A DNA stretch of 64,000 nucleotides from Sphingobacteriaceae bacterium (GTDB lineage: Bacteria; Bacillota; Sulfobacillia; Thermaerobacterales; RSA17). Below the pieces are notes generated by a model that saw only the letters and a program-made list of their open reading frames with translations, was not told the DNA's origin and did not search any database. Each line of letters begins with the position of its first letter. The stretch's first letter is position 1. Both the position numbers and the translations under genes were made by a program. Positions 7,553 through 54,165 of the stretch are shown here, in pieces. The stretch covers positions 2,306 to 66,305 of the forward strand of contig DATGRI010000058.1 in the NCBI GenBank assembly GCA_035303785.1. The letters are read 5' to 3'.

Positions 7553-8277
7553 GCAAATTCCCCCCCTGGGCCGGGTCGGCCGCGGTCCAAGGCGCGGACG
7601 GCCCGGACCGTGGCCCGCAGCCGCTCCACGCCGTCGGGACGATATATGACGTTGCCTATCACGACGGTATGGGCGACGGCCGCCATGGCGGCCGCCTTCG
7701 CGCCGTCATCGATGCCGCCACCGTAAACAAGCCGGGTCGAGGCGCCCATCTGCCGGTTAAGGTGGTCCACCGCCCGGCGGGCCCGGGCCACCAGCCCGGG
7801 GGAGCCGTACCGGCCGCTGTACTCCAGGTAGACCACGGGCAGGCGCCAGAGCCCCGCCGCCAGGCGGACGCAGGCCAGCACCCCCGACAGGTCGGGAGCC
7901 TCCGCCACCCCCACCTGGCGGGCCGCCGCCGAAGCGGGGTTCATCATTATATAACCCATGGCGGCGGTGCGCCGCCAGGGCACCCGGGCGCCCCAACGGG
8001 CCAGGGCTTCCAGATGCAGCCCCGCCACCCACCGGTGGTGGGGGCTGTTCAAGGCCACGGGCACCAGGTAGCCGTCGGCGCCCGGCAGCACCGCCTGGGT
8101 GGATGACACCTCGATGAAGACGGGGACGGGCGCCGGCCGCAGGGCGGCCAGGAGCCCCATCACTTTGGTTCGGGTTATGCCTTGGGTGCCGCCCAATATG
8201 ATGGCATCGGTCCCCGACCGGGCCACCGCCCGCAGCTGGGAGCGGGACAGGGGCTTGTCCGGGTCCAGTTTCACCAC
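7549..8277 (-). CDS. pcrB: Heptaprenylglyceryl-phosphate synthase (GGGP-synthase family)
   Basis: PcrB/GGGPS-like sequence (VKLDPDKPLS..., DAIILGGTQGIT, VYLEYSGRYG, LVYGGGIDD). The start is set at GTG 8277. The N-terminus of the 407-aa track ORF overlaps gatB out of frame. Confidence 0.7.
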   Translation of the reverse strand: MVKLDPDKPLSRSQLRAVARSGTDAIILGGTQGITRTKVMGLLAALRPAPVPVFIEVSSTQAVLPGADGYLVPVALNSPHHRWVAGLHLEALARWGARVPWRRTAAMGYIMMNPASAAARQVGVAEAPDLSGVLACVRLAAGLWRLPVVYLEYSGRYGSPGLVARARRAVDHLNRQMGASTRLVYGGGIDDGAKAAAMAAVAHTVVIGNVIYRPDGVERLRATVRAVRALDRGRPGPGGEFA

Positions 8278-8333
8278 GTGGCGCCATCCCTGCCAAAGGG
8301 ACGGCACGGCGGGCTGCACCCCCGGCGACCTCC

Positions 8334-9815
8334 TCAAGAATTCAAATGTTCCCGCAGCAGCCGGTTGGCCAGCTGGGGATTGGCCTGGCCCCGGGTCAGG
8401 CGCATGACCTGGCCCACCAAGGCTCCCAAGGCCTTTTCCTTGCCGGCCTTGTAGTCGGCCACAGGGCCGGGGTTCTCCTCCACCACCTGGCGGATGATGG
8501 CGGCCAGTTCCCCTTCGTCGCTGATCTGCCGCAGGCCCTTGGCCTCCACCACTTCTTCGGCGGTGCGACCGCTTGCCAGCATGTCGGCCAGGACTTCCTT
8601 GGCCATGGTGCCCGACAAGGTGCCTTCCTTGACCATGGTCAGGAGATGGGCCAGTTCCTTGGGGCCCACGGCCAATTGGTCCACCGTCAAATTGTTGGCC
8701 CCCAAGTAGGCCAGGATTTCCGTGGACACCCAGTTGGCCACCGTCTTGGCGTCGCCCAACAGCCGGGCGCACTCCTCGAAGTAGTCGGCCAGGGCCTTCT
8801 CGGCGGTCAGCACCCCCGCGTCGTAGGCGCTGAGGCCCAACTCCTCCATGTAGCGCCGCCGGCGGGCCTGGGGCGGCTCGGGCAGCTGGGCCTTCAAGGC
8901 TTCCAGCCGCTCCCGGGTGATGATGTAGGGCGGCATGTCGGGCTCGGGCAGATAGCGGTAGCCTTCGGCTTCGTCCTTGGCCCGGGAGGGAACGGTCACC
9001 TGGGCGTTTTCATCCCAGTGGCGGGTTTCCCGGGTCAGGGCTTCGCCCCGCTGGAGGAGCTCCCACTGCCGCCGGCCCTCGTACTGAAGAGCCCGGACTA
9101 CAGAGCGGAAGGAATTGAGATTCTTCACCTCGGTGGGGGGATTCATGGAGTCGCTGCCCCGGGGGCGCACCGACACGTTGGTGTCCACCCGCAGGGAGCC
9201 TTCCTCCATGCGCACGTCGCTGACGCCGGCGTAGGCCAGGATGTCCCGCAGGTTGGTCAAGTACTCCCGGGCTTCTTCGGGGCTGCGGATGTCGGGCTCC
9301 GACACGATCTCCAGCAGCGGCACCCCGGCCCGGTTGAAATCCAGCAGGGATCCGCCGGCCACGGCATCGTGGATGGACTTGCCCGTGTCTTCCTCCAGGT
9401 GGGCCCGGTTGATGCGGATCACCTTTGGCCCGTCGGGCCCCTCGATGGTGATGGAGCCGCCGCTGCCCACGGGCAGGCCGTACTGGCTGATCTGGTACCC
9501 CTTGGGCAGGTCGGGGTAGAAATAGTTCTTCCGGTCGAAGGTCAGCCGGGGCGCAATCCGGCAGTTCAAGGCCAGGGCCGCCTTGATGGCCTGGTTCACC
9601 GCCCCTTCGTTCAAGACGGGCACCGCCCCCGGCAGCCCCAGGCAGACGGGGCACACCTGGCTGTTGGGCGGGGCGCCGAAGGTGGTGGCGCACGGGCAGA
9701 ACACCTTGCTCTCGGTCTTCAATTCCACGTGGACTTCCAGGCCGATAACCAGTTCGTAGGGGGTTTCCCCGTCCTGATGCAATGTCGTCAAGTCTTCATC
9801 CTGCCGCAGGCTCAC
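8334..9815 (-). CDS. gatB: Asp/Glu-tRNA(Asn/Gln) amidotransferase subunit B
   Basis: YELVIGLEVHVELKTESKVFC, NRAGVPLLEIVSEPD and a C-terminal YqeY-like tail (GKEKALGALVGQVMRLTRGQANP). GTGA overlap with the gatA stop. Confidence 0.93.
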   Translation of the reverse strand: MSLRQDEDLTTLHQDGETPYELVIGLEVHVELKTESKVFCPCATTFGAPPNSQVCPVCLGLPGAVPVLNEGAVNQAIKAALALNCRIAPRLTFDRKNYFYPDLPKGYQISQYGLPVGSGGSITIEGPDGPKVIRINRAHLEEDTGKSIHDAVAGGSLLDFNRAGVPLLEIVSEPDIRSPEEAREYLTNLRDILAYAGVSDVRMEEGSLRVDTNVSVRPRGSDSMNPPTEVKNLNSFRSVVRALQYEGRRQWELLQRGEALTRETRHWDENAQVTVPSRAKDEAEGYRYLPEPDMPPYIITRERLEALKAQLPEPPQARRRRYMEELGLSAYDAGVLTAEKALADYFEECARLLGDAKTVANWVSTEILAYLGANNLTVDQLAVGPKELAHLLTMVKEGTLSGTMAKEVLADMLASGRTAEEVVEAKGLRQISDEGELAAIIRQVVEENPGPVADYKAGKEKALGALVGQVMRLTRGQANPQLANRLLREHLNS

Positions 9816-20652: not shown

Positions 20653-21933
20653 TCAGCCGGCGGCGGCGGCGGCGATGTCCCGGCGGAAGTGCATGCCGTC
20701 GAAATGAATCTTCTCGATGGCGGCGTAGACCGTCTCCCGGGCGCCGGCCAGGGACGGGCCCCGGGCCACCACGTTCAAGATGCGGCCGCCGTTGGTGACC
20801 CAGCCCTTGTCGGAATCCCAGCGGGTGCCGGCGTGGAACACCTGCACGTTGGGCATGCCGGGCACGTGGCCCGTCTCATCCAGCCCTTGGATGACGTCGC
20901 CCTTGCGGGGCTCCCCGGGATAGCCGTGGGCCGCCAGGACCACGCATACGGCCGCCTCATCCCGCCACACCCAAGGCTGCTGGGCCAGATTGCCCTGGGC
21001 GCAGGCCAAGGCCAAGGCGGCGAAATCGCTTTCCAGGCAGGGGAGGATGACCTGGGCCTCGGGATCTCCCAAGCGGCAGTTGAACTCCAGCACGTAAGGG
21101 CCGTCCTCCGTCAGCATCATGCCGGCGTACAGCACGCCCCGGAAAGGAATGCCCTCGGCGGCCATGCCCGCCACCGTCCGCTGCAGCACGTCCTTCTCCA
21201 GGCGGCTCACCAGGTCGGGATCCAGGAAGGGCACCGGGGAGTAGGCGCCCATGCCGCCGGTGTTGGGCCCCTCGCCCCCGTCGTACAGGGCCTTGTGGTC
21301 CTGGGAAGCGGGGCAGAGGCGCACCGTCTCGCCGTCGGTAAAGGCCAGGAGGGTGACTTCAGGACCCTGCAGCCGCTCCTCGATGACCACCCGCCGGCCC
21401 GACTCGCCAAACCGGCCCCGGCGCATCATGGCATCCACCGCCTCCAGGGCCGTTTCCGTGTCGGCCGCCACCACCACACCCTTGCCGGCGGCCAGGCCGT
21501 CGGCCTTGACCACGATGGGGCCGCCCCGGGAGCGGATGTAGTCTTCGGCTTCGGCGGGGTCGTCGAACACCTTGCCGGGGGCCGTCGGAATGCCGTGGCG
21601 CTCCATGAACGACTTGGCGTAGGCCTTGCTCCACTCCAGCCGGGAGGCCTGCTTGGTGGGGCCGAAGGCCGGTATGCCCGCCTCCTGCAGTCCGTCCACC
21701 ACGCCGGCGGCCAAGGGCGCCTCGGGGCCCACCAAAACCAGGTCCACCTTGTTGGCCTGGGCCGCAGCCACCACGTCGGCAGGCGACAACGGGTCGCCGG
21801 GGAGGCACGTGGCCCGCTTGCCGATGGCGTCACTGCCGGGCAGGGCGAAAATTTCGGTCACCGAGGGCGAAGCCAGCAAGGTCTCCACCATGGTGTGCTC
21901 ACGGCCGCCGCTGCCGATCACCATTACCCGCAT
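20653..21933 (-). CDS. purD: Phosphoribosylamine--glycine ligase
   Basis: [50 protein letters not shown]. Typical PurD throughout. Confidence 0.93.
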
Positions 21934-21959
21934 GAATGCATCCCACCCTTACGAAAAGG

Positions 21960-23648
21960 TCAATGACGGAAATGCCGAACCCCAGTCATCAACATGGCCA
22001 CACCCAGGCGGTCGCAGGCATCCACCACCTCCTGGTCGCGGATGGAGCCGCCGGGCTGCACCACCACCTTCACTCCCCCCTCGGCGGCCACCTCCACCCC
22101 GTCGGGGAAAGGGAAGAAGGCGTCGGAAGCCATGACGGCCCCTTGGGCCGCCTCGCCCGCCTGGGCCACCGCCTGGCGCACCGCATCCACGCGGCTGGTG
22201 CGGGCGGCGCCGATGCCCACGGCCCGCTGGTCCTTCACCAGGACGATGGCATTGGAAGGCAGGTGGCGCACCAGATGCCAGGCGAAGAGCATGTCGTCCC
22301 ACGCCTCCGCCGGGGGCTGGGCCTTGGTCGCCACCCGCCACTGGTCCGGCTGGACGGGCAGGTCATCCTCGTCCTGGAGGAGCACACCCCCTTGGATGCG
22401 GCGCACGTCCCAGCCGGCCAGGCCCACGCCCACGGGTCCCGTGGAGGCGCCGCCGCCCACGGGCCCAGCGCCCGCGGGCCCTTGGCCCGAACCCCCGTCA
22501 TCACCCGACGCAGCCGGCGGCAGGGGCATGGTCAACACCCGCAGGTTGGCCCGTCCCGCCAGGATCTCCTGGGCTTCAGGGGAAACTCCCGGCGCCAGCA
22601 CTACTTCCAGGAAGATGTCCGCCAGCAGCCGGGCCGTCTCCTCGTCGATGACCCGGTTCAAGGCCACGATGCCGCCGAAGATGGAAACGGGATCGGCGTC
22701 CCGGGCGCGGCGGAAGGCCTCGGCCGGGTCGGGGCCGCAGGCGGCGCCGCAGGGGATGGTGTGCTTCACCGCCACCGCCGCCGGCGGCACCAGGGTGCTC
22801 ACCAGGCGCCAGGCGGCCTCGGCATCCTGCAGGTTGTTGAAGGACAACTCCTTGCCCTGCAGCTGCCGGGCGGCGGGCAGCCCCAACTGCCAGCCCGGGG
22901 CCGTGGGGGGTATGGCGGCGTCCCGGTAGACCGCCGCCTTCTGGTGGGGGTTCTCGCCGTAGCGCAGGCCCGCTGTCCGCCGGAGGGGCAGCACCAGCCG
23001 CTGGGGGGGCTCCACCCCGGCCTCACCCGTCTCCCCCGCTTCCTGGCCCAGGGCCGCCGCCACCACAGCGTCGTAGTAGGCGGTGTGGGCGAAGGCCCGG
23101 GCCGCCAGGCGGCGGCGGAGTTCCTCGGAAATACCGCCGGCCCCTCCTTCCTGCAGGGCCTGGATGACGGCCGGATAGTCGTCGGGGTCCACCACCACCG
23201 TGACCCAGGGCCAGTTCTTGGCCGCCGCCCTGATCATGGCGGGGCCGCCGATGTCGATCTGCTCCAGCAGGTCCATGCCCTGGGCGCCGCCGTGCCAGGC
23301 CGTCTCGAAGGGATACAGGTTGACGGCCACCAAATCGATGGCCTGCAGGCCGTGGCGGGCCCAGTCGGCCATGTCCTCTTCCCGGTCCCGCCGCCCCAGG
23401 ATGGCGCCGTGGACGGCGGGGTGCAAGGTCTTGACCCGGCCTCCCAGCATTGCGGGAAAGCCCGTCAGTTGGTCCACGGGCACCACCTGCAGGCCGGCGG
23501 CAGCCAACGCCGCCAGGGTCCCGCCGGTGGAAACCAATTCAAACCCGGCCGCCGCCAGGGCGCGGCCCAAATCTTCGATTCCCCGTTTGTCCGCCACGCT
23601 CAGCAGGGCCCGCCGGACCCGGCCGGCGCCGGCATCGTTAGCGGTCAT
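21960..23648 (-). CDS. purH: Bifunctional AICAR formyltransferase / IMP cyclohydrolase
   Basis: IMPCH N-domain (RALLSVADKRGIEDLGRALAAAGFELVSTGGT, KTLHPAVHGAIL) and AICARFT C-domain (SDAFFPFPDG, GGSIRDQEVVDACD, MLMTGVRHFRH). It contains a G/P/A-rich inter-domain insertion. Confidence 0.93.
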   Translation of the reverse strand: MTANDAGAGRVRRALLSVADKRGIEDLGRALAAAGFELVSTGGTLAALAAAGLQVVPVDQLTGFPAMLGGRVKTLHPAVHGAILGRRDREEDMADWARHGLQAIDLVAVNLYPFETAWHGGAQGMDLLEQIDIGGPAMIRAAAKNWPWVTVVVDPDDYPAVIQALQEGGAGGISEELRRRLAARAFAHTAYYDAVVAAALGQEAGETGEAGVEPPQRLVLPLRRTAGLRYGENPHQKAAVYRDAAIPPTAPGWQLGLPAARQLQGKELSFNNLQDAEAAWRLVSTLVPPAAVAVKHTIPCGAACGPDPAEAFRRARDADPVSIFGGIVALNRVIDEETARLLADIFLEVVLAPGVSPEAQEILAGRANLRVLTMPLPPAASGDDGGSGQGPAGAGPVGGGASTGPVGVGLAGWDVRRIQGGVLLQDEDDLPVQPDQWRVATKAQPPAEAWDDMLFAWHLVRHLPSNAIVLVKDQRAVGIGAARTSRVDAVRQAVAQAGEAAQGAVMASDAFFPFPDGVEVAAEGGVKVVVQPGGSIRDQEVVDACDRLGVAMLMTGVRHFRH

Positions 23649-23650
23649 CT

Positions 23651-24346
23651 TTATGCTTCTGCCTCCTCCGGCACCGGGGGTGCCACATGGACCCGCCGCC
23701 CTTCAACCCGGAGGCGTCCCTGGGCGTACAGCCGGATGGCCTCGGGCAGGAGCCGGTGCTCCACCGCCTGGATGCGGCGATGAAGGGTGCCGGGGTCGTC
23801 TTCGGGCAAGACCGGCACCGCCTCCTGCAGGATGATGGGCCCGGTGTCCATGCCGTAATCGACGAAATGAACGGTGCAGCCGCTCACCTTGACGCCCCAG
23901 TCCAAGGCCTGGGTAGGAGCCTGCAGACCGGGGAAGGCGGGCAGCAGCGAGGGATGAACGTTGATGATCCGGTTGGGAAAGGCGTCCACCATGGGGGCGC
24001 TCAGCAGCCGCATGAAGCCGGCCAGCACCACCAGTTCCACCCGGTGGGCCACCAGCACGTCCCGCAGCTGGCGATCATAGTCGGCCCGGGTGGGCCAGGG
24101 GCCGGGATCCAGCCACAAGGCCGGCACGCCGGCGGCCCGGGCTTTTTCCAATGCCGGCGCATCCCCCTTGTCGGATACCACCAGAACTACTTCCGCCCCC
24201 AGGTCTCCCCGGGCCTGGGCGGCCAGGACCGCCTCCATGTTGCTGCCCCGGCCCGAGGCCAGGACGGCCACCCGCACCGGTTCCCGGGCAGGCCGGCCTG
24301 AATCGGGGGCGCTGCCCTCCTCCCGCTGGGCACCGGCCGTGTTCAT
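23651..24346 (-). CDS. purN: Phosphoribosylglycinamide formyltransferase
   Basis: VLASGRGSNMEAVL, INVHPSLLPAFPG, GCTVHFVDYGMDTGPII. ATG 24346 overlaps the purM stop (ATGA). The longer track ORF is rejected. Confidence 0.9.
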   Translation of the reverse strand: MNTAGAQREEGSAPDSGRPAREPVRVAVLASGRGSNMEAVLAAQARGDLGAEVVLVVSDKGDAPALEKARAAGVPALWLDPGPWPTRADYDRQLRDVLVAHRVELVVLAGFMRLLSAPMVDAFPNRIINVHPSLLPAFPGLQAPTQALDWGVKVSGCTVHFVDYGMDTGPIILQEAVPVLPEDDPGTLHRRIQAVEHRLLPEAIRLYAQGRLRVEGRRVHVAPPVPEEAEA

Positions 24347-25410
24347 GACCAAATCACCTCCGGCTTGCTGTCGGGCGGCGCCTCCTCTACGACGCCGATG
24401 GGCCAGGCGCCTCCCGTCAGGGGCGCCATGGCGGCACAAAATTCTTGGGCTTGGGCTGCCGGCACCACCACGGTGAAGCCGATGCCCAAATTGAAGGTGC
24501 GGCGCATTTCTTCTTCCTCCACGGGACCCAGGCGCCGGATCAGCCGGAAGACAGGCGGCTCCGGCCACGACCCGGCGTGGAGCCGGGCCCTGGTCCCCGG
24601 GGGCAGGGTGCGGGCCACGTTGTCCGTAAGGCCGCCGCCGGTGATATGGGCCATGGCCCGCAGGGAAAAACGGCCCCGGGCGGCTTTGACGGCGCCCGTG
24701 TAAAGGCGGGTGGGCTCCAGCAGCACTGTGCCCAACGGCGCCTCCAGTTCATCGATCTCCGTGGCTAAAGTCCAGCCGGTCCCCGCCAGCAGCACCCGCC
24801 GGGCCAGGGAAAAGCCGTTGCTGTGGAGGCCCGAGGAAGCCAAGCCCACGATGACGTCCCCCGGCTCCACCGACCGGCCGTCAATCAAGTCCCCGGCGGC
24901 CACCCCGCCCACGGCGAAGCCCGCCAATTCCATGTCGTCGGGGCCCATCATGCCGGGCAGCTCCGCCGTCTCGCCCCCCAGCAGGGCGCAGCCGGCCTCC
25001 CGGCAGGCGGCGGCGATGCCCGACACCACCGCTTCCGCCTGGTCCGGCCGGAGCCTGCCCATGGCCAGGTAGTCCAGGAAGAACCAGGGCTCGGCCCCGT
25101 ACACCAAAATGTCGTTCACATTCATGGCCACCAAGTCCCGGCCGGCCCCCTCCAGCCGCCCGGCTTCCCGGGCCAGGAGCAGCTTGGTGCCCACCCCGTC
25201 GGCCGCCGCCAGCAGGATGGTTTCCGGCTGGGCCCCCGGCACCCGGAACATGCCGGCAAAGCCCCCCACCCCGGACACCACCTCGGGCCGGGCGGTGGAG
25301 GCCGCCAGGGCCCGGAACCGTCCCACCAAGCTTTCGGCGGCATCGATGTCGACGCCGGCGGCCCGGTAGGTCACGGGCCGGCGGGCGTCGTCGCCCCGGC
25401 TTTCAGTCAT
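24343..25410 (-). CDS. purM: Phosphoribosylformylglycinamidine cyclo-ligase (AIR synthetase)
   Basis: YRAAGVDIDA, GVGGFAGMF, DGVGTKLLLA, HSNGFSLAR. ATG 25410 overlaps the purF 3' end by 8 nt. Confidence 0.92.
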   Translation of the reverse strand: MTESRGDDARRPVTYRAAGVDIDAAESLVGRFRALAASTARPEVVSGVGGFAGMFRVPGAQPETILLAAADGVGTKLLLAREAGRLEGAGRDLVAMNVNDILVYGAEPWFFLDYLAMGRLRPDQAEAVVSGIAAACREAGCALLGGETAELPGMMGPDDMELAGFAVGGVAAGDLIDGRSVEPGDVIVGLASSGLHSNGFSLARRVLLAGTGWTLATEIDELEAPLGTVLLEPTRLYTGAVKAARGRFSLRAMAHITGGGLTDNVARTLPPGTRARLHAGSWPEPPVFRLIRRLGPVEEEEMRRTFNLGIGFTVVVPAAQAQEFCAAMAPLTGGAWPIGVVEEAPPDSKPEVIWS

Positions 25411-26896
25411 GGGGGTCCCGATCTCCTTCCCGGTTCCCGTCGCCGGCTGCCGGCCCCTGCTCCCCCACCGGGGGGAAGCGGCCGGTGAAGCAGCCGTGAC
25501 AATAGGCATTTTCGTCTTGGCCGGTAACGGCCAACATTCCTTTCAAGGAAAGAAAGTACAAACTGTCGGCTCCCACCAGGCGCCGCATTTCCTCCACATC
25601 CCGGCCGGCCGCCATCAACTCGCCCCGGCGGCCGATGTCCACGCCGAAGGGGCACGGGTGGCGGAAGGGGGGCGAGGTGATGCACAGGTGGACTTGGGCG
25701 GCCCCCGCCTGGCGGACGGCGTTGACCAAGGGCCGGATGGTGCTGCCCCGGACGATGGAGTCATCCACCAGCACCACCCGCCGTCCGGCCACCACGTCCC
25801 GGATGGGGTTCAGCCGCCAGCGCACCCCGGCGGGCACGTAGCGGCCCCGGGGTCCGATGAAGGTGCGCCCCACATACCGGTTCTTCACCAAGCCCAGTTC
25901 GAAGGGGATGCCGGTAGCGGCGCTGTAGCCCATGGCCGCGGGCAGGCTGGCGTCGGGCACCCCCAGGACCACGTCAGCGTCCACCACGTGCTCCTGGGCC
26001 AGCTGCCGGCCCAAGGCCTGGCGGATGGCATAGGTGGAGCGGCCGCCGAAGAGGCTGTCGGCCCGGGCCAGGTAAATCAATTCGAAAACGCAGAAAGCCT
26101 GGGGGGTGTTTTCCAGGGAGGGCAGCCGCCCCCACTGCAGCCCCTGGTCATCGATCCAAACCCAGTGGCCCGCGGGCACTTCCTGGAGGGTGTCGCCGCC
26201 CACGGCATCAAAGGCGCAGCTTTCCGAGGCCAGCAGGTAAGCCTGGTCCAGGCGGCCCAGCACCAAAGGCCGGATGCCGTGGCGATCGCGAAAGCCGAGG
26301 ATGCCTTGGGGGGTGGCGTAGACGGCGGCCATGCCCCCGTCCACTTGGGTGAGGGAGTGGCCCAGGGCTTGGGGCCAGCCGTCGCCCGGAGCCCGGGCCG
26401 CCAGGTGGGCCAGGATTTCCGCGGCGTCGCCGGAGCGGAAGACGGCCCCTTGGGCCTCCAGCCGCTGCCGCAGGGCATCGGCCCCGGCCAAGGCGCCGTT
26501 GATGGCCACGGCCAGGTGGCTGTCCCGGCACCGGACCACCAGGGGCTGCCGGTCCGCCGGCTCCGTGGACTGCTGGACGTGGCCCAGGACGATGGTGCGG
26601 GCTCCCCGGGGACCTAAGGCCAGGTCGGCCAGCTCCTCCCCGGAGAACACGTCGGTGACCAGGCCCCTGCCTCCCAGCCGGGCGAACTGGTCATCCCCGG
26701 GACCCCAGGCGGCCATGCCCGTCCTTTGCTGCCCCCGGTGCTGGAGGGCGAACAAGCCTTGGTAGGCAATGTGAACCCCTTCGGGATGCCCGAAGACGGC
26801 GAACAGGCCCGAGTGGTCCCCGGCGGCGCCCCCGCCGGAGCCCGACCGGGCGCTCCCCGACCCTCCCGCCGGCGGCCTCACTGCCGGGGCGCCCAT
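25403..26896 (-). CDS. purF: Amidophosphoribosyltransferase homologue with non-canonical glutaminase active site
   Basis: The PRTase and Fe-S parts are conserved (VVLVDDSIVRGST, SPPFRHPCPFGVD, YCHGCFTG, FCVFELIY). The position of the Ntn nucleophile Cys reads Ser (DHSGLFAVFG; TCG codon at 26812..26810). GHVRY is replaced by GHVQQ. The start is ATG 26896 or GTG 26881 (GTGA overlap with the purL stop). The 813-aa track ORF is rejected. Confidence 0.85.
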   Translation of the reverse strand: MGAPAVRPPAGGSGSARSGSGGGAAGDHSGLFAVFGHPEGVHIAYQGLFALQHRGQQRTGMAAWGPGDDQFARLGGRGLVTDVFSGEELADLALGPRGARTIVLGHVQQSTEPADRQPLVVRCRDSHLAVAINGALAGADALRQRLEAQGAVFRSGDAAEILAHLAARAPGDGWPQALGHSLTQVDGGMAAVYATPQGILGFRDRHGIRPLVLGRLDQAYLLASESCAFDAVGGDTLQEVPAGHWVWIDDQGLQWGRLPSLENTPQAFCVFELIYLARADSLFGGRSTYAIRQALGRQLAQEHVVDADVVLGVPDASLPAAMGYSAATGIPFELGLVKNRYVGRTFIGPRGRYVPAGVRWRLNPIRDVVAGRRVVLVDDSIVRGSTIRPLVNAVRQAGAAQVHLCITSPPFRHPCPFGVDIGRRGELMAAGRDVEEMRRLVGADSLYFLSLKGMLAVTGQDENAYCHGCFTGRFPPVGEQGPAAGDGNREGDRDPHD

Positions 26897-29727
26897 GGCG
26901 GCTTGACTCCCCGGCCCGGCTCGGGCAGGTGATCGACAGGAGTGGACAACAAGGAGCGGCCCGCCACGGTTACGGCCAACCGCCCGCCGCCGGCGGCGCC
27001 CAGCACCGCAGCCGGGACACCCGCCGACCGGGCGGCCGCCAGCACTTGATCCGCCGCCGCCGGCGGCGTGCTCACCAGCACCCGGGAGGGCCCTTCGCCG
27101 AAGAGCAGGGCTTCGGCGTCGCCGTCCCACTGGTCCGGGGACAGGTCCACCTGCACCCCCAAAGGCCCGCCGGCGGCGGTGCGGCAGGCCCGGGCCAGGG
27201 CGGCGGCCAGGCCGCCCAGGTCTATGCCGGCGGCCGAAGCCAGCAGCCCGTCGCTGTGCAGCTGCTGGAGCAAGGCCCACAGGCGGGCTTCCAAATCCGA
27301 ATCCACTTGGGGCGGGCGGCCCTGCACCCGGCCGTAGCGGACGGCCAGGTACTCGCTGCCTGCCAGGTCGCCGGCCAAGGGCCCCAAGACGAGCACCGCA
27401 TGGCCCGCGGCCAGCCAGCCGGGGCCCAGCACCGGCCGTCCCGGCGGGAGAACCCCCACCACCCCCACCACCGGGGTGGGGTAGACGCCTTGGCCGCCCC
27501 GTTCGTTGTAAAGGCTCACGTTGCCGCCCGTCACCGGCACGTCCAGGCTGCGGGCGGCGGCGCCCATGCCTTCGATGATCTCGGTGAATTCCCACATGAT
27601 GGCGGGATCTTCGGGGCTGCCCAGGTTGAGGCAGTTGGTCAGCCCCAAGGGCTTGGCCCCGGTGCAGGCCACCCGCCGGCCCGCCTCGGCCACGGCGGCG
27701 GCGGCGCCCCGCCGGGGATCCAGCCACGTCAGCCGGCCGTTGCCCGCCAGGGCCACCACCAGATGCTGGCCCGTCCCGGGCACCGGCACCGCCGCCGCTC
27801 CCGTGGCCAGCAAGGTGTTGTCGTCGTGCTTGCCGCCCAGCCAATGGGCTTCCGTCAGGTTGGGGCCCGCCAGCAAATCCACCAGGGCTTCGTCATAGTC
27901 GGTGGAGCCGGCTCCGGCGGCGGCCTCCCCGCCGGCGGGGGCAGGCTCCCAGCGCCGGGCCAGGTCGGCGGGCTCCGCCACAGGCCGCCGGTAGGCCGGC
28001 GCCCCCTCCGTCAGAATGGTGGCCGGCAGGGCCGCCAGTTCCACATCGCCCATGGTCACCCGCACCAGGCCGTGGTCGGCCACCCGGCCGATGCAGGCCC
28101 CGGGCACGTTCCACTGGGTCAGGATTTGCTCCACCTGGGACTCCTTGCCCGCCTTGACGATGAGCAGCATCCGCTCCTGGGTTTCCGAAAGCATGATCTC
28201 GTGGGGGCTGAGGCGGGGCTCCCGGCAGGGCACCAGGTCCAGGTCCAGGTCCACGCCCTGGCCGGCCCGCCCGGCCGTCTCCGAGGCCGCCGAGGTGATG
28301 CCCGCCGCGCCCAGGTCGTTGACGCCCACCAGCAGGTCCGCCTCCATCATGGCCAGGCAGGCCTCCACCAGGCGGCGCTTCAACTGGGGGTTGGCGGCAG
28401 GCACCGTGGTGGGGGGGATGACCTCGTCGTCCAAGCCCCGGGACGAGGCGCTGGCCGCCCGCACCCCGTCGGGCCCCGTGCGGGCGCCCACCAGGTAAAT
28501 GGGGTTGCCCACCCCTTCTGCCCGGCCCCGGAACACCCGGTCCCGGTCCACGAAGCCGGCCGCCAGCACGTTGACCAGGGGCGCGGGGCGGTACCCCTCG
28601 CCGGAAAAGACGCTGGCGGTGAAGGTGGCGATGCCGGTGCCGGCAGCGTAGTCGGCCATGCCCTCGGCCGCCCCCAGCAGGATGTCTTGGTTGTTGCCTT
28701 CCTCCAGGGGGCCTACCCGCAGGGCCCCCGCCAGGAGGGCCGGCCGGGAGCCCACGGCCAGGATGTCCCGGACGATGCCCCCGGCGCCGGTGGCGGCGCC
28801 CCGGTGGGGATCCAGGCTGGAAGGATGGTTGTGGCTTTCACAGCGCAGGGCCACGGCCACGGGGCCGCCCAGGTCCACCACGCCGGCGTTCTCCCCGGGG
28901 CCCAGGAGCACCTGGGGCCCTTCCCGGGGCAGCCGGGCCAGGTGGATGCGGGTGCTCTTGTAGGAGCAGTGCTCCGACCACATGGCTCCTACCATTTCTA
29001 ATTCCAACTGGTTGGGGGCCCGGCCCAGCCCCTGGACCAAATCGTCGTATTCCTCCCGGGTCAGGCCCACGGCCTGCCAGGGCTCCCGGTGGGCCGCCAC
29101 CCGGTCGTAAACTTCCTGCCACCCCGGCTGGGCCTGCTGCTCGGCGAGGGCCAGCCGGAGGGTCCGGGGCGAGAGCTCGCCGGCCAGGAGGAGGGCGCCG
29201 TCTTCCGTGCGGCCGAACTCCAAACGCAGGTGGATCAGGTCCAGGCCCCTTTCCTTAAGGAATGAGCCCAGCACATCGTTGACGGCCAGGGCCACCTGCT
29301 CCAGCCGCTCCACTTCGTCGGGGCCGGCCAGCCCCAGCACCTGCACATGATGGTGGTTGACCAGAACCTCCTGGGACTCGTCCCCCCGGTAATAAAGCTC
29401 CACCACGGGCCGGGGCAGGGTGGAGCCGGGGGTCAGGCCCAGGCGCCGGGCCCAGGGCTCTTCCGCGGCGTTCCGCACCAGCACCGCCAGGGGGATGGGG
29501 GCTGTCCCCTGGACCAGCATCTCCCGGGGGTTCACCCGGGCGATGAAGTGGTTGGGTATGCCGGCTTCCGTCAAAACTTGAAACAGGCGGGCGGAAATCT
29601 CGTTGCCGGCCTCTTCCTTGAAATGAATCAAACAGCGATCGGGCCGGGCCGTGCCGTAAACGATCTTCGCCTCGTCTTCCCGCAGCTTCGGCCTGGCGCC
29701 GGCGTCCGGCGGCGATTGTCTATCCAT
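26878..29727 (-). CDS. purL: FGAM synthase subunit PurL fused to an N-terminal degenerate PurC (SAICAR synthetase)-like domain
   Basis: A single uninterrupted 949-aa ORF with ATG 29727 after GGGGAGGGGGAGGG. Residues ~225-949 are PurL (MWSEHCSYKS, ESHNHPS, GAATGAGGIVRD, MLSETQERMLL, GGNVSLYNE). Residues ~15-215 are collinear with PurC (GIPNHFI, PLAVLVRN, VVELYYRGD, LRLEFG, LAGELSPRTLRL) but lack the YEGKAK and DSATAFNG...GKG segments. Confidence 0.85.
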   Translation of the reverse strand: MDRQSPPDAGARPKLREDEAKIVYGTARPDRCLIHFKEEAGNEISARLFQVLTEAGIPNHFIARVNPREMLVQGTAPIPLAVLVRNAAEEPWARRLGLTPGSTLPRPVVELYYRGDESQEVLVNHHHVQVLGLAGPDEVERLEQVALAVNDVLGSFLKERGLDLIHLRLEFGRTEDGALLLAGELSPRTLRLALAEQQAQPGWQEVYDRVAAHREPWQAVGLTREEYDDLVQGLGRAPNQLELEMVGAMWSEHCSYKSTRIHLARLPREGPQVLLGPGENAGVVDLGGPVAVALRCESHNHPSSLDPHRGAATGAGGIVRDILAVGSRPALLAGALRVGPLEEGNNQDILLGAAEGMADYAAGTGIATFTASVFSGEGYRPAPLVNVLAAGFVDRDRVFRGRAEGVGNPIYLVGARTGPDGVRAASASSRGLDDEVIPPTTVPAANPQLKRRLVEACLAMMEADLLVGVNDLGAAGITSAASETAGRAGQGVDLDLDLVPCREPRLSPHEIMLSETQERMLLIVKAGKESQVEQILTQWNVPGACIGRVADHGLVRVTMGDVELAALPATILTEGAPAYRRPVAEPADLARRWEPAPAGGEAAAGAGSTDYDEALVDLLAGPNLTEAHWLGGKHDDNTLLATGAAAVPVPGTGQHLVVALAGNGRLTWLDPRRGAAAAVAEAGRRVACTGAKPLGLTNCLNLGSPEDPAIMWEFTEIIEGMGAAARSLDVPVTGGNVSLYNERGGQGVYPTPVVGVVGVLPPGRPVLGPGWLAAGHAVLVLGPLAGDLAGSEYLAVRYGRVQGRPPQVDSDLEARLWALLQQLHSDGLLASAAGIDLGGLAAALARACRTAAGGPLGVQVDLSPDQWDGDAEALLFGEGPSRVLVSTPPAAADQVLAAARSAGVPAAVLGAAGGGRLAVTVAGRSLLSTPVDHLPEPGRGVKPPWAPRQ

Positions 29728-29760: not shown

Positions 29761-31059
29761 TCACAAGCCCGCCCGGCGGTAAATGTGGTCCATGTGGCGC
29801 AAGGCCCGGGCCGGATCGAAGCATTCCCGGATCTGCTCCTCCGTCAGCTTGTCCCGGATGCGGGGATCCTGCATGACCAGGTCCGGGAACCGGCCCCGCC
29901 CTTCCCAGGCGTCCATGGCCAGGCCCTGGACGATGCCGTAGGCTTCCTCCCGGCTGAGGCCGGCGTCCACCAGAGCCAGCATCAAAGCCTGGGAGTAGAT
30001 CAAGCCGCCGGTCCGCTCCAAGTTGGCGGCCATGGCCTGGGGGTACACGTGCATGCCTTCCAAAACTACGGTCATCAGGTGGAGCATGTAGTCCAGCAGG
30101 ATGGTGGTGTCGGGCAGGATGATGCGCTCCACCGACGAGTGGGAAATGTCCCGCTCGTGCCACAAGGGCTGGTTCTCCAAGGCCGCCAGGGCGTTGCCCC
30201 GCACCACCCGGGCCAGGCCGCTGATGCGCTCGCACAAAACGGGATTGCGCTTGTGGGGCATGGCCGAGGAGCCCTTTTGGCCCGCCCGGAAAGGCTCCTC
30301 CACCTCCCGGGTTTCCGTCTTCTGCAGGTGGCGGATTTCCACGGCCATGGTCTCCAGGCTGCCGGCCAAAATGGCCAGGGCGGCCATCAATTCGGCGTGC
30401 CGGTCCCGCTGCAGCACCTGGGTGGACACCCCCGCGGGCTCCAGGCCCAAGGCCCGGCAGACGTACTCTTCCACCCGGGGGTCCACGGTGGCGAAGGTGC
30501 CCACGGCCCCCGACAGGCGGCCCACGCTGATGGTCTCCCGGGCCCGGACCAGCCGCTCCCGGTTGCGGCCGGCCTCGGCATACCACAAGGCCAGCTTGAA
30601 GCCGAAGGAAATGGGCTCGGCGTGGACGCCGTGGGTGCGGCCCACCATGATGGTGTCCCGGTGCTCCCGGGCGGCGGCGGCCAGAACCTCCCGCAGGCGG
30701 TCCAAGCCTTCCAGCAACATGTCCACCGCTTCCCTTAGGGCCAGGGACAGGGCGGTGTCCACCACGTCGTAGGAGGTGAGGCCGTAGTGGATCCAGCGGG
30801 CGTTGGGCCCCATGACCTCCCCCAGCCAGGTGGTGAAGGCTATGACGTCGTGGTGAACTTCGGCTTCGATGGCGTTGATGCGGTCTTCGTCGAAATATTC
30901 CGGCCGGCGGGCCTTCAAGTCTTCCACCGCTTCAGGGGGTACGTGCCCCAACCGGGCGAAGGCCTCGCAGGCCAGCAGCTCCACTTCCAGCCAGCGGCGG
31001 TACTTGGCCTGGTTGCTCCACAGGGCGGCCATGGCGGGGCGGGAATAACGGGGAATCAT
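29761..31059 (-). CDS. purB: Adenylosuccinate lyase
   Basis: [27 protein letters not shown], and fumarate-lyase signature GSSAMPHKRNP. ATGA overlap with the purE stop. Confidence 0.94.
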   Translation of the reverse strand: MIPRYSRPAMAALWSNQAKYRRWLEVELLACEAFARLGHVPPEAVEDLKARRPEYFDEDRINAIEAEVHHDVIAFTTWLGEVMGPNARWIHYGLTSYDVVDTALSLALREAVDMLLEGLDRLREVLAAAAREHRDTIMVGRTHGVHAEPISFGFKLALWYAEAGRNRERLVRARETISVGRLSGAVGTFATVDPRVEEYVCRALGLEPAGVSTQVLQRDRHAELMAALAILAGSLETMAVEIRHLQKTETREVEEPFRAGQKGSSAMPHKRNPVLCERISGLARVVRGNALAALENQPLWHERDISHSSVERIILPDTTILLDYMLHLMTVVLEGMHVYPQAMAANLERTGGLIYSQALMLALVDAGLSREEAYGIVQGLAMDAWEGRGRFPDLVMQDPRIRDKLTEEQIRECFDPARALRHMDHIYRRAGL

Positions 31060-31622
31060 GGGCTCTCACCGCTGCCGGCGGTTTCTTGGGGGCTGCCCGC
31101 CCCGGCAAGCCGGCGGCGCAGTTCATCGCCGGCGGCGGCCACCTGGGCCGCCATCTGCTCCCGGTGGGCCGCCAGGCGGGGCACCAGTTCCGGGTAGCGC
31201 AGGGCCAGGATGCGGGCCGCCAGGAAGGCGGCGTTGGCGCCCCCGTCGATGGCTACCGTGGCCACGGGCACGCCGCTGGGCATCTGCACCGTGGCCAGGA
31301 GGGCGTCCAGGCCGTCGGTGGCCCAGGCTTTCACGGGCACGCCGATCACCGGCAGGTGGGTGTAGGCGGCGATGACGCCGGCCAGGTGGGCGGAGCCCCC
31401 CGCCAAGGCGATGATGACGGCTATGCCCCGTTCATGGGCTGTACGGGCGAATTGGGCTACGGTGTCGGGGGTGCGGTGGGCGGAAGCGACGGTGACTTCG
31501 TAGGGAATGGCCAGTTGGTCTAGTGTAGTGGTGACCTTGGCGACCACCGGGGCATCGGAGGCACTGCCGGCCAGTACGGCCACCAGAGGCCCGGGGAGGC
31601 CGTCGCCCTGGGCGGGTGTCAC
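31056..31622 (-). CDS. purE: N5-CAIR mutase (class I PurE)
   Basis: [21 protein letters not shown] (class-I type), [22 protein letters not shown] 31622 lies 4 nt after GGAGGTGG. No purK follows it. Confidence 0.9.
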
Positions 31623-31763: not shown

Positions 31764-32414
31764 CTAGTCCAGGGTGACGAGCCCCTTGCGGATGGCGTAC
31801 TTGGTCAACTGCACCGCATCGTGGAGCTGCAGCTTCTCCATGATGTTGGCCCGGTGGGCCTGCACCGTCTTGATGCTGATGAACAGGCGGTCGGCGATCT
31901 GCTGGTTGGTGAGGCCGTCGGCCACCAGCTTCAGCACTTCGATCTCCCGCTCCGTCAGGCCGTCGTAATCTTCCCGCTTCTCCCCGGCGCCCCGGCCGTG
32001 GAAGGCCATCCGGGCCACCTCGGGGTGGAGAATGGTGTGGCCCTGATGGACGGCCCGCAGGGCGGTCTTCAACTCCGAGGCCGCCGACCGCTTCAGCACG
32101 TAGCCCGCCGCGCCGGCCTGCATCAGCGGTGCCACGTATTCCTCGTCATCGTGCATGCTCAGGATGAGCACCTTGGTCTCGGGGAAGTCCTTGCGGATCT
32201 TGCGGGTGGCCTCGATGCCGTTCATGCGGGGCATGCCGATGTCCATCAGCACCACGTCGGGCCGCAGTTCGGCCACCATGGCCACGGCCTCTTCCCCGTC
32301 GGCGGCTTCGCCCACCACTTCCACATCGTCCTCCCGCTCCAGCAGGGAGCGGATCCCCTGGCGCAATATGCTGTGGTCGTCCACCAGCAGCACCCTGATG
32401 CGCTCTTCAGCCAT
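31764..32414 (-). CDS. Response regulator, NarL/LuxR (DegU/LiaR-like) family
   Basis: REC domain (RVLLVDDHSILRQG, DVVLMDIGMPRMNG) plus LuxR HTH (LTEREIEVLKLVADGLTNQQIADRLFISIKTVQAHR). ATG 32414 lies 6 nt after GGAGGGG. Confidence 0.9.
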   Translation of the reverse strand: MAEERIRVLLVDDHSILRQGIRSLLEREDDVEVVGEAADGEEAVAMVAELRPDVVLMDIGMPRMNGIEATRKIRKDFPETKVLILSMHDDEEYVAPLMQAGAAGYVLKRSAASELKTALRAVHQGHTILHPEVARMAFHGRGAGEKREDYDGLTEREIEVLKLVADGLTNQQIADRLFISIKTVQAHRANIMEKLQLHDAVQLTKYAIRKGLVTLD

Positions 32415-32428
32415 CTGCACCCCTCCCC

Positions 32429-33481
32429 TCATAGGTTGGCCACGGTGCGGGGAATCACCACCTTGACGGTGGTGCCCCGGCCGCGGATGGATGCTACCGT
32501 CAGGCGGCCGCCCACCAGTTCGGCCCTTTCCCGCATGCCGAAGAGCCCCATGCCCCGCCCGTTGGCGTCGGCCTTCTCCAGCTCCAGCAAGGAGAAGCCG
32601 ACACCGTCGTCGGTGATTTCCGCCGTCAGGGACTCTTCCGTCTCCCGCATGGTCACCGTCACGCTGCGGGCCCGGGCGTGCTTCTGCACATTGGTCAGGG
32701 CTTCTTGCACGATGCGGAACAAGGCCGTTTCCACTTCGTCGGGCAGCCGGCCCTGGAAGCCTTCTACGTCCATCTCCACGTGGATGCCCAAGGGGTCCAA
32801 TTTATGTTTAACATACCAGCGCAAGGCGGGGACGAGGCCCAGATCGTCCAGGATGGTGGGGCGCATGTCGAAGGTGATGCGCCGGGTTTCCGTCAGGGCG
32901 TCGGCGGCCATGTCCCGGATGCGGCCGATCTCCTCCGCCAGTTGGGCGTGGTTGGGGGAGCCGGCCAGGGAGTCCTTGATCAGGTCCAGCCGGATGACCA
33001 GGTTGGTCAAGGCCTGGCTCGTCTCGTCGTGGAGTTCCCGGGCGAAGCGCTTCCGCTCGTCCTCCAGGGCCCGCAGGATCTGGGAGGCCACGCTGCGCTG
33101 GTGCCGGGCCAGTTCGTCCAGCATCTGGTTCAAGGTGGCGGCCAGTTCCGCCACATCGGGGTCGCCGCTGATCTCCGGCGCCCGCTTTTCCCGGTCACCG
33201 CGGCGGATTTCCTCCATGGTTTCCCGCAGCAGGAACAAGGGGTGGAAGGCCACCCGCATCAGCAGGTAGTTGATGAGGAGACTGGCGCTGATGGCCGCGG
33301 CCAGGATGACGGTGGAGCCGGTGTAGGCGCCGGCCAGATCGGGCGCCGGCTCCCGAACGATGACCCAGGCCGATGCCAGGGCGGTGCCGGCGATCAAGGC
33401 CACGTTGGCCACCAACACCTTGTAGAAGATGGGTACCTGGGCATTCAGCCGGCGGATTACGTCGGCCACTGCCTGCAACAC
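32429..33481 (-). CDS. Sensor histidine kinase, HisKA_3 (NarX/DesK/LiaS-like) family
   Basis: Two TM segments, a HAMP-like linker, H-box ERKRFARELHDETSQALT and HATPase_c (VQEALTNVQKHA, DDGVGF, GMGLFGMRERAELVGG). GTG start 7 nt after GGAGG. Confidence 0.88.
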   Translation of the reverse strand: MLQAVADVIRRLNAQVPIFYKVLVANVALIAGTALASAWVIVREPAPDLAGAYTGSTVILAAAISASLLINYLLMRVAFHPLFLLRETMEEIRRGDREKRAPEISGDPDVAELAATLNQMLDELARHQRSVASQILRALEDERKRFARELHDETSQALTNLVIRLDLIKDSLAGSPNHAQLAEEIGRIRDMAADALTETRRITFDMRPTILDDLGLVPALRWYVKHKLDPLGIHVEMDVEGFQGRLPDEVETALFRIVQEALTNVQKHARARSVTVTMRETEESLTAEITDDGVGFSLLELEKADANGRGMGLFGMRERAELVGGRLTVASIRGRGTTVKVVIPRTVANL

Positions 33482-50717: not shown

Positions 50718-50782
50718 GATCTCCACATCCCTTCCAGGTTGCCCGCGCAACGGGCTGCCCTTCCAGGATGTGCAGGGGAGCC

Positions 50783-53016: not shown

Positions 53017-54165
53017 TCAGTCCTCGGTGAGGCTCTTCACCAGATGGCGGGGCTGGTCCACATTGCGGCCAAGGGCTACGGCCGCGTGATAGGCCAGCAG
53101 CTGCAGGGGCACTACCGACAGCATGGGCCCGAAGATGGGCTCCACCGGGGGTATGGGCAGGAAGTGGTCGGCATGGCGGGCCAGTTCACGGCTGCCGGCG
53201 GGAGCCACCGCCACCACCTGGGCTCCCCAGCGGCGCACTTCCTGGAAGTTGCGGGCCATCATCTCCTCCAGGTCGGGCCTGGTGACGATGCCCACCACGC
53301 TGTAGTCGGAATCAATCAAGGCCATGGGGCCGTGGCGGAACTCGCCGGCGGCGCACGCTTCAGCATGGATGTAGGAAGTTTCTTTAAGCTTCAATTGCCC
53401 TTCATGGGCGGTGATCCAGTCCATCTGCCGGCCGATGTAGAAGGCGTGGCGCCGCCGGGCCAAGTCCCGGCCGGCTTGGGCCACGGCTTCCTCCTCCGCC
53501 AGCACGGCGGCCACCTGGTCGGGCATGGCCGCCAGGCCCGCCAGGATGCGGGCCGCCTCTTCCCGGGGCAAGGTCTCCTGGGCCCGCCCCAAGCCGACGG
53601 CCAGCAGGACTACCGCCACCAACTGGGCCATGTAGGCTTTGGTGGAGGCCACCGCCTCCTCGGTGCCGGCCTGGGTGATGAAGGTGAAATCGGCTTCCCG
53701 GGTGATGGCGCTGCCGGGCGCGTTGGTCACCGCCAGGACAGCTGCGGCGCCCCGCTGCCGGGCAGCCGCCAGGGCGGCCAGGGTATCCTTGGTTTCCCCC
53801 GACTGGCTGACGGCCACGGCCAAAGTGCCCGGAGGAACCCGGAATTCCCCGAAGCGGAACTCCGACGCGGGTTCGGTGCGGGCGGGCAGGCCCGCCACCT
53901 GCTTGACCAGGGCGTCGCCCACCAAGCCGGCATGGTAGGCGGTGCCGCTGCCCAAAAACAAAACATGCCGCACCTGGGCCAGGGCGGCCTGATCCAAACC
54001 CGTGCCGGACCAATCCACATCCCCCGCCTGCCGTCCCAGGCGGCCGGCCAGGGTACGGCTGATGGCCTGGGGCTGCTGGAAAATCTCCTCATGCATCTTA
54101 TGACGGTGGCCTCCCGGCCGGCCGGCGCCGGCCTGGGTCCCTTCTATGGGCAGTTCCTTGACCAT
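53017..54165 (-). CDS. GlmS-like sugar isomerase (2xSIS) protein lacking the N-terminal glutaminase domain
   Basis: 382 aa, starting MVKELPIEG...HRHKMHEEIFQQPQAISRTL, which corresponds to the start of the GlmS isomerase half. SIS motifs (FLGSGTAYHAG, VSQSGETKDTL, EEAVASTKAY). GlmS-type C-tail VPLQLLAYHAAVALGRNVDQPRHLVKSLTED. ATG 54165 lies 7 nt after AAGGAGA and only 14 nt after the glmM stop. Confidence 0.85.
   Translation of the reverse strand: MVKELPIEGTQAGAGRPGGHRHKMHEEIFQQPQAISRTLAGRLGRQAGDVDWSGTGLDQAALAQVRHVLFLGSGTAYHAGLVGDALVKQVAGLPARTEPASEFRFGEFRVPPGTLAVAVSQSGETKDTLAALAAARQRGAAAVLAVTNAPGSAITREADFTFITQAGTEEAVASTKAYMAQLVAVVLLAVGLGRAQETLPREEAARILAGLAAMPDQVAAVLAEEEAVAQAGRDLARRRHAFYIGRQMDWITAHEGQLKLKETSYIHAEACAAGEFRHGPMALIDSDYSVVGIVTRPDLEEMMARNFQEVRRWGAQVVAVAPAGSRELARHADHFLPIPPVEPIFGPMLSVVPLQLLAYHAAVALGRNVDQPRHLVKSLTED

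Follow-up and report, generated by a model that had tools for sequence, protein, structure and literature searches.

How can a purine operon function when its PurF amidotransferase seems to have lost the means to hydrolyze glutamine? The question is raised by a purF-like coding sequence at 25403..26896 (−; stop codon included), with a product of 497 amino acids (aa; NCBI HLS89318.1), in a 64,000-nucleotide stretch of contig DATGRI010000058.1 (assembly GCA_035303785.1), which was analyzed as a whole and is referred to here as the window. A first-pass annotation, made from the sequence alone, had read the product as a glutaminase-dead, ammonia-using PurF or possibly an N-terminal nucleophile (Ntn) enzyme with a Ser nucleophile. 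The residue losses at the glutamine site, the purifying selection on the gene, and the losses in neighboring genes favor the former option, and from them we infer the use of ammonia. On the evidence of sequence and gene order, the gene is the purF ortholog of a Thermaerobacterales-like Bacillota lineage that is uncultured and has so far been met with only in metagenomes. The glutaminase of its product is very probably dead, and the protein probably works as an NH3-dependent phosphoribosyl pyrophosphate (PRPP) amidotransferase, in which glutamine-dependent synthesis of phosphoribosylamine (PRA) is predicted to be absent.

The identification of the gene as a purF homolog was confirmed, because the protein is a full-length PurF of the Bacillus subtilis type. 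It scored 370.8 bits against the TIGR01134 purF profile (cutoff 350), with residues 30–475 on profile positions 2–432 of 432, and was ~43% identical to B. subtilis PurF. In a phmmer search against the PDB, residues 30–476 aligned with residues 2–447 of mature B. subtilis PurF (1AO0/1GPH; E = 6.5e-111); because residue 30 pairs with mature residue 2, Ser29 occupies the position of Cys1. The AlphaFold model (predicted local distance difference test score [pLDDT] 87.3; predicted template modeling score [pTM] 0.87) had the two-domain fold of an Ntn domain and a type I phosphoribosyltransferase (PRTase) domain, with template modeling (TM) scores of 0.82/0.90 against B. subtilis PurF 1AO0. The Ntn-type (class II) glutaminase-fold domain (residues 29–262; 26111..26812, −) matched Pfam GATase_6/7 and was modeled with pLDDT >90. 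The PRTase domain (residues 263–478; 25463..26110, −) retained both its PRPP motif (VVLVDDSIVRGST) and its flexible loop (KNRYVGRTFI), in which one Arg (B. subtilis 321) is Val. It also contained Fe–S ligands, which comprise C269, C415, C466 (TGT, 25501–25499), and C469 (TGC, 25492–25490). All four cysteines fell in invariant alignment columns, so that the earlier reading of a retained loop and retained Fe–S cysteines stands.

The glutaminase site, in contrast, was extensively altered. When the codons were re-read, the nucleophile position was TCG (Ser29; 26810..26812, −), and Gln108-Gln109 (CAG CAG; 26570..26575, −; checked by hand) replaced the Arg-Tyr of GHVRY(S/A)T, such that the block G105–T111 read GHVQQST; the first-pass annotation had proposed both the Cys-to-Ser change and the conversion of GHVRY(P/A)T to GHVQQST. 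The replaced pair corresponds to Arg72 and Tyr73 of B. subtilis PurF, or Arg73 and Tyr74 in Escherichia coli numbering, which have reported roles in glutamine binding and coupling (Kim et al. 1996; Krahn et al. 1997). A further loss that had escaped the earlier account was found at Ala158 (26423..26425, −), the equivalent of Asp127 (B. subtilis/E. coli), which binds the alpha-amino group of glutamine. The AHNGNL of canonical PurF reads AINGAL in the window protein, and within I132-N133-G134-A135 (26492..26503, −) the Asn-Gly oxyanion pair was kept, as previously noted, and the flanking His and Asn were lost. Ser29 is preceded by the expected Gly/Ser-rich leader (M1..H28; 26813..26896, −), which would be 23 aa long if translation started at GTG V6. 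Residues 1–26 were disordered in the model (pLDDT <50), and the Ntn fold began at residue 29. A mis-called start hiding a Cys was rejected, because the only in-frame starts before Ser29 are ATG 26896 and GTG V6, and no Cys occurs anywhere in the leader. A nucleophile further upstream was also rejected, because the in-frame sequence there overlaps purL and contains no CG(V/I)FG motif.

The rarity of these changes was apparent in an alignment of 122 sequences, which combined the 120 best-ranked database homologs with B. subtilis PurF and the window protein. In the nucleophile column, 117 sequences had Cys, three had Ser, one had Gly, and one had a gap; Arg72 was kept in 117, Tyr73 in 115, Asp127 in 118, and the Asn-Gly pair in all 122. 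The columns of Arg73, Tyr74, and Asp127 (E. coli numbering) were otherwise 97–100% conserved. Only four sequences were Cys-less: P0003, which is 57% identical and has Gly; P0002, which is 88% identical and has Ser; and the window protein together with P0001, the near-identical representative of its cluster. All four had both the Gln-Gln pair and the Asp-to-Ala change. The window protein, P0002, and P0003 clustered in 100 of 100 neighbor-joining bootstraps, on a long branch nested among Cys-bearing PurFs of the Thermaerobacterales type. The closest Cys-bearing ortholog, P0004, came from a Thermaerobacterales metagenome-assembled genome (MAG), in which the gene order downstream of purF matched that of the window up to the sensor kinase. 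The sister sequence P0012 kept the Cys and had Arg-Cys instead of Arg-Tyr; a long Gly-rich insertion was also present in this PurF. Together with P0009 and P0010, it belongs to a set of proteins that retained Cys1 and lost Tyr73 (RH, CS, and RC in P0009, P0010, and P0012) as well as other glutamine-site residues (L054 is also listed with them). Judged from these residues, the three may represent intermediate stages in the erosion of the glutamine site. Among the contigs of GTDB representative genomes, the closest PurFs were ≤46% identical, and a scan of JGI metagenomes with P0003 as the query detected no further close Cys-less relatives. The exact window protein was found on at least 15 contigs, of which the 10 shown were from 10 different runs or assemblies; sequencing error at the key codons was thereby ruled out.

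The gene is also under purifying selection. When compared with the 88%-identical relative (L001/L038), the ratio of nonsynonymous to synonymous substitution rates (dN/dS) was 0.16 for the whole of purF, 0.14 for the Ntn domain, and 0.11 for the PRTase domain, and 0.16, 0.11, and 0.18 for the neighboring purM, purB, and purE, respectively. The disabled glutaminase domain is therefore constrained to the same degree as the functional enzymes encoded next to it. The C-terminal tail had a ratio of 0.90 and the leader 0.68; the leader thus evolves almost neutrally, and across the clade it was 28, 35, and 47 aa long, with no conserved cleavage context. It is probably never removed. These ratios, together with open reading frames (ORFs) that were intact at 57% identity, ruled out a pseudogene. 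Among the conserved alignment columns, 20 of 68 in the Ntn domain and 12 of 81 in the PRTase domain were changed in the window protein, compared with 1–5 and 2–3, respectively, in canonical controls.

Losses of a similar kind were found in three other genes of the window. Immediately upstream of the purF-like gene, purL was fused in frame to a PurC-like domain (949 aa, HLS89319.1; 26878..29727, −), with no purS or purQ in between. In Thermaerobacter marianensis and a Thermaerobacter sp. MAG, the order is purC-purS-purQ-purL-purF-purM-purN-purH-purD, and the purL-purF-purM order of the window is the same as in these two and in the Thermaerobacterales MAG. A tblastn search of the 64-kb window with Thermaerobacter PurS, PurQ, and two canonical PurFs detected no PurS, no PurQ, and no second PurF, the PurF queries matching only the gene described here. 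Small PurL on its own reportedly has NH4+-dependent activity (Hoskins et al. 2004). The 88% relative carried the fusion as well, and it was found again in assemblies from JGI, ENA, and Logan. Its PurC-like domain (residues 1–215; 29083..29727, −) was degenerate, with EGKAK changed to EDEAK, AGS to EEP, IDFKLEFG to IHLRLEFG, and ADEISPDTCR(F/L)WD to AGELSPRTLRLAL; ~17 residues of the conserved TAFDG...KG..N segment were deleted and the DKDRFR tail was absent. Its TIGR00081 score was 114 bits (cutoff 190), and its dN/dS was 0.34, compared with 0.16 for the PurL part. By its motifs, this domain is catalytically dead. No functional purC was found in the window, and neither a second PurF nor a stand-alone PurC of the same MAG, recognized by an HLS accession or the label 'Sphingobacteriaceae', occurred among the closest NCBI matches. 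The L047:406-3030/L044 lineage (71.6% GC), which shares the kinase-regulator-purE-purB synteny, had an intact separate purC with purL 19 nt later, and likewise lacked purS and purQ; the deletion of purS and purQ is thus not tied to the purC~purL fusion. L047 was considered as a possible source of the P0003 or P0012 PurFs, but there was no nucleotide overlap, so the organisms are different.

The GMP synthase gene guaA (409 aa, HLS89324.1; 33497..34726, −), which adjoins hpt, encodes the ATP pyrophosphatase (ATP-PPase) and dimerization domains and only a ~95-aa triad-less remnant of the glutamine amidotransferase (GATase) domain. The protein matched positions 179–512 of the 512-position GMP synthase profile. 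In comparison with full-length relatives, both ends of the GATase domain flank an internal deletion of ~100 residues, which takes out the cysteine of GICYGMQ and the histidine and glutamate of HPE. This short architecture was found in at least 13 database clusters at 54–88% identity, and partly decayed intermediates (GIGYGHKL, GIGCGMEL) were also detected. The dN/dS was 0.45 for the GATase remnant and 0.14 for the rest of the protein. In L037, a relative with 52% GC, hpt and guaA were fused (L037:6820-8670) and the fusion protein had no GATase domain. The PurQ of L037 (L037:9535-10254) had the nucleophile elbow GIGNGFQ (Cys to Gly), and its PurF still had the Cys and GHVRYS. This mixture of lost and kept features suggests stepwise losses. 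In another relative with a short GuaA, L036 (58% identity; ENA sample shared with L026), purB and purH stood beside groEL-hpt-guaA (L036:4342-11215) with no other pur genes nearby, and a P-II gene and two DUF1538 genes followed downstream.

The fourth lesion affects hexosamine biosynthesis. In the order cdaA, a gene in the cdaR position with no family match, and glmM, a glmS-like gene follows directly (382 aa; 53017..54165, −). It has a strong ribosome-binding site of its own (AAGGAG) ahead of its start codon, ATG 54165, and encodes only the isomerase (SIS) domains. The protein matched positions 242–599 of the 601-position GlmS profile; the whole Ntn glutaminase domain was absent. The Lys, Glu, and His that we presume, from the E. 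coli motifs, to form the isomerase site were kept, as was the C-terminal Lys. The scores of the window protein were 364–370 bits on GlmS models and 89–110 bits on GlmD/NagB-II models. Similarly short GlmS proteins made up roughly 20 of the 150 best representatives.

Two other enzymes of the window have kept their catalytic residues. The Lys/Ser/Ser signature was present in GatA, and both GICRG and HPE in a PuuD-like class I GATase, indicating that the losses are specific and not a genome-wide property. The PuuD/peptidase-C26-like ORF (49965-51278, −) has an N-terminal extension of ~200 aa rich in Arg, Gly, and Pro, which is probably an over-extended ORF and not real protein.

In the mechanism that we favor for PurF, the glutaminase half-reaction would be abolished by the changes Cys1→Ser, Arg→Gln, Tyr→Gln, and Asp→Ala, and PRA would be formed from PRPP and free NH3 at the intact PRTase site. 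Ntn catalysis needs a free alpha-amine, and the half-reaction presumably cannot run because there is no thiol nucleophile, the glutamine anchors are gone, and an unprocessed leader denies that amine. The Gly in P0003 indicates that no nucleophile is required in the Cys-less clade. Purifying selection has preserved the two-domain architecture along with the PRTase half and the [4Fe-4S] site, and the disabled Ntn domain is probably kept as a structural and allosteric partner in folding, oligomerization, nucleotide regulation, and closure of the PRTase loop. More speculatively, the vacated glutamine pocket might serve as an open funnel into the former NH3 channel, at whose mouth small Gln residues have replaced Arg and Tyr. 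Experiments on mutant enzymes are consistent with this scheme: E. coli PurF C1S and C1A lost glutamine-dependent activity and kept NH3-dependent PRA synthesis (summarized in PMC3261824), and a triad-dead GMP synthetase kept its NH4Cl-dependent activity (PMC9312489). A PurL acting without PurQ and PurS, a GuaA without its triad, and a GlmS without its glutaminase domain would reflect the same shift away from glutamine. Among the relatives, GuaA appears to have been affected first, followed by PurQ (Cys to Gly) or by the deletion of purS and purQ, and then by PurF. A lineage-wide change of nitrogen donor is the most economical explanation of the losses in PurF, PurL, GuaA, and GlmS. The proposition that the lineage as a whole has moved from glutamine- to ammonia-dependent amide transfer in purine and hexosamine biosynthesis is nevertheless put forward tentatively, and we give it slightly less than an even chance.

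Other explanations of the window PurF were weighed against this one. If the leader were cleaved, Ser29 might itself hydrolyze glutamine or another amide, as the first-pass annotation had allowed. In favor of this, other Ntn hydrolases can use Ser as their nucleophile, the protein retains the Asn133-Gly134 oxyanion pair, and its Ntn domain is under purifying selection. However, the sister P0003 has Gly at that position and yet the same Gln-Gln and Asp-to-Ala changes, the anchors of both the carboxylate and the amino group of glutamine are gone, and the leader is neutral, variable in length, and devoid of a conserved cleavage context. Moreover, the account of the C1S mutant of E. coli in PMC3261824 gives no detectable glutamine-dependent activity, and a Ser-nucleophile enzyme is thus very improbable. 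We consider it equally improbable that the protein has become a PRPP-dependent transferase with a different nitrogen donor or acceptor. The long branch leading to the clade and the several changes at otherwise conserved PRTase positions would fit such a new function, but the gene has kept its slot between purL and purM, where start and stop codons overlap, the protein scores above the TIGR01134 equivalog cutoff, and no new domain or pocket-forming insertion was present.

A role as an accessory or regulatory subunit is unlikely, even though there is a precedent for it: in Crenarchaeota, Cys-less PurF' paralogs coexist with canonical PurF (PMC3261824), and an arrangement such as the one proposed for crenarchaeal PurF/PurF' would leave the chemistry to a canonical Cys1 PurF encoded elsewhere. 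The incompleteness of the genome and the extra substitutions at conserved PRTase positions are compatible with this idea. However, the gene occupies the exact operon slot of the Cys-bearing orthologs (purL-purF-purM-purN-purH-purD in Thermaerobacter and the Thermaerobacterales MAG), the tree nests its product within those orthologs, the protein has an intact PRPP motif and flexible loop, and no second purF was found in the 64 kb. The five closest canonical PurFs were from other assemblies or had no accession, and the parallel losses of the PurQ, GuaA, and GlmS glutaminases argue for a general change of nitrogen donor. It is also quite improbable that the PurF changes are neutral damage in a decaying gene of a purine-salvage lineage whose operon is turning into pseudogenes. 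Such a lineage could be recognized in the dead PurC-like domain fused to PurL, in hpt beside guaA, in the number of conserved columns altered in both PurF domains, and in L036 with only purB and purH nearby. However, ORFs were intact in lineages as distant as 57% identity, and the dN/dS values of purF, purL, purM, purE, and purB (0.11–0.18) were far from those of the vestigial PurC-like and GuaA N-terminal pieces (0.34–0.45) and of the leader. The damage was also concentrated at glutamine-site residues, and the PRPP and Fe–S residues were invariant.

Several points weigh against an ammonia-dependent pathway encoded by this locus. A canonical purF, purQ and purS, or a GuaA glutaminase subunit may lie outside the 64-kb window. 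With the PurC-like domain dead, the pathway needs a phosphoribosylaminoimidazole-succinocarboxamide (SAICAR) synthetase elsewhere; such an enzyme must be encoded somewhere, given that purE is under purifying selection and has no use except upstream of PurC. E. coli GlmS is not known to use free ammonia, so the loss in GlmS needs an explanation of its own; SIS-only relatives, however, catalyze the reversible deaminase reaction. Finally, the 12 of 81 highly conserved PRTase-domain columns that deviate include the flexible-loop Arg-to-Val change. The PRTase-domain changes mostly exchange similar residues (K→R, T→S, Y→F), but altered PRTase behavior of the window PurF is possible.

Comparison with known systems indicates where the window protein departs from them. 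B. subtilis PurF shares with it the Ntn and PRTase fold, the [4Fe-4S] cysteines, the PRPP motif, the loop, an N-terminal leader, and the position in the pur operon; in the window protein, however, Cys1 is replaced by Ser, Arg72 and Tyr73 by Gln, and Asp127 by Ala, the NG pair no longer has its flanking His and Asn, and the leader is a low-complexity segment of 28 aa and not an 11-aa propeptide. The protein is PurF by descent, fold, and PRTase features, but the defining glutaminase features have failed, and 'glutamine' amidotransferase is a misnomer. The engineered E. coli variants C1S, C1A, and C1F, in which the nucleophile is replaced as in the window protein, lose glutamine-dependent activity and keep NH3-dependent PRA synthesis (cited in PMC3261824) and so offer a functional model for it, but they were made in the laboratory by point mutation and the rest of their glutamine site is intact, whereas the state in the window is natural and ancient and includes the loss of glutamine-binding residues.

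The crenarchaeal PurF', which has Ala or Val in place of the Cys, is also a natural PurF homolog without the N-terminal Cys; it is encoded near purine genes, and ammonia dependence has been hypothesized for it (Brown et al. 2011, PMC3261824). That protein is a paralog always accompanied by canonical PurF (Brown et al. 2011, PMC3261824), whereas the window protein is bacterial, nested in Bacillota orthologs, and located in the canonical slot without a second copy in the 64 kb, in a locus with three other glutaminase losses. Its nesting among Bacillota PurFs, in a tree built without archaeal PurF', suggests an origin independent of the archaeal protein. Single-domain NadE, a synthetase of the amidotransferase family, draws on free ammonia in vivo and has no glutaminase component (De Ingeniis et al. 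2012, PMC3376133), as proposed here for the window enzymes, but its glutaminase-less state is common and probably ancestral. In that survey, glutaminase-less forms were absent among GuaA in 730 genomes and PurL in 660, and NadE alone is commonly so (PMC3376133); the state in the window is thus secondary and rare. The ATP-PPase part of the window GuaA has the same domain content as the archaeal two-subunit GMP synthetase, but unlike the latter it keeps both GATase ends around the deletion, pointing to decay in situ and not to gene fission. Similarly, the GlmS-like protein has the domain content of the SIS-only glucosamine-6-phosphate (GlcN6P) deaminases GlmD and NagB-II, but scores far higher on GlmS models and occupies the glmM-glmS position. 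A literature search found no described lineage with a coordinated loss of glutaminase modules. Thus, a Cys-less PurF was known before from Crenarchaeota, and what is new is the bacterial ortholog in the canonical slot together with the coordinated losses.

Glutamine amidotransferases are textbook examples of coupled two-site enzymes with ammonia channels, and glutaminase-less forms, NadE apart, have usually been taken as laboratory artefacts or archaeal paralogs. In this one 64-kb locus, there are four independent lesions, and each time the glutaminase half is gone and the synthase half is under selection, which, if the reading given here is true, would be a natural reversal of the presumed assembly of glutamine amidotransferases. 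If the use of NH3 is confirmed, the lineage would provide a natural system for studying amidotransferase function and regulation without glutamine, natural 'open-channel' variants of PurF, and a means to ask in which environments, in terms of ammonia level or temperature, an organism can do without glutamine as its carrier of nitrogen. There is also a caution for annotation, because all four proteins are named as ordinary enzymes, and GuaA is even named 'glutamine-hydrolyzing'.

The remaining genes of the minus-strand pur operon, which runs purE, purB, purC~purL, the purF-like gene, purM, purN, purH, and purD, are arranged in two blocks. Upstream of the fusion lie purE (31056-31622, −) and purB (29761-31059, −), forming the block 29761..31622; downstream of the purF-like gene, the block 20653..25410 contains purM (24343-25410, −), purN (23651-24346, −), purH (21960-23648, −), and purD (20653-21933, −). 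The purF-like gene lies between purL and purM, and its start and stop codons overlap these neighbors. A NarL/LiaS-type histidine kinase and a GerE-type response regulator are encoded between guaA and purE (31764-33481, −), a placement also kept in the 88% relative and the L044 lineage, and the pair may act as regulators of the operon. An Rfam scan of the window (1–64000) detected nothing at the gathering score, including no purine or ZTP riboswitch, no glmS riboswitch/ribozyme, and no T-box, despite the presence of pur, gua, and glm genes.

The MAG label 'Sphingobacteriaceae bacterium' is contradicted by the gene content; the gene order, the best matches (Thermaerobacter, Thermaerobacterales, and Moorella), and the G+C content of 68.6% point to a Thermaerobacterales-like member of the Bacillota. 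The label of a PurC match, P0439 ('Chitinophagales bacterium'), is possibly wrong in the same way. The window also contained an ORF for a PcrB-like heptaprenylglyceryl-phosphate synthase (7549-8772, −) with an N-terminal extension of ~160 aa, a heptaprenylglyceryl-phosphate O-acetyltransferase-like gene (46651-47172, −), and a heptaprenyl diphosphate synthase gene (57900-58913).

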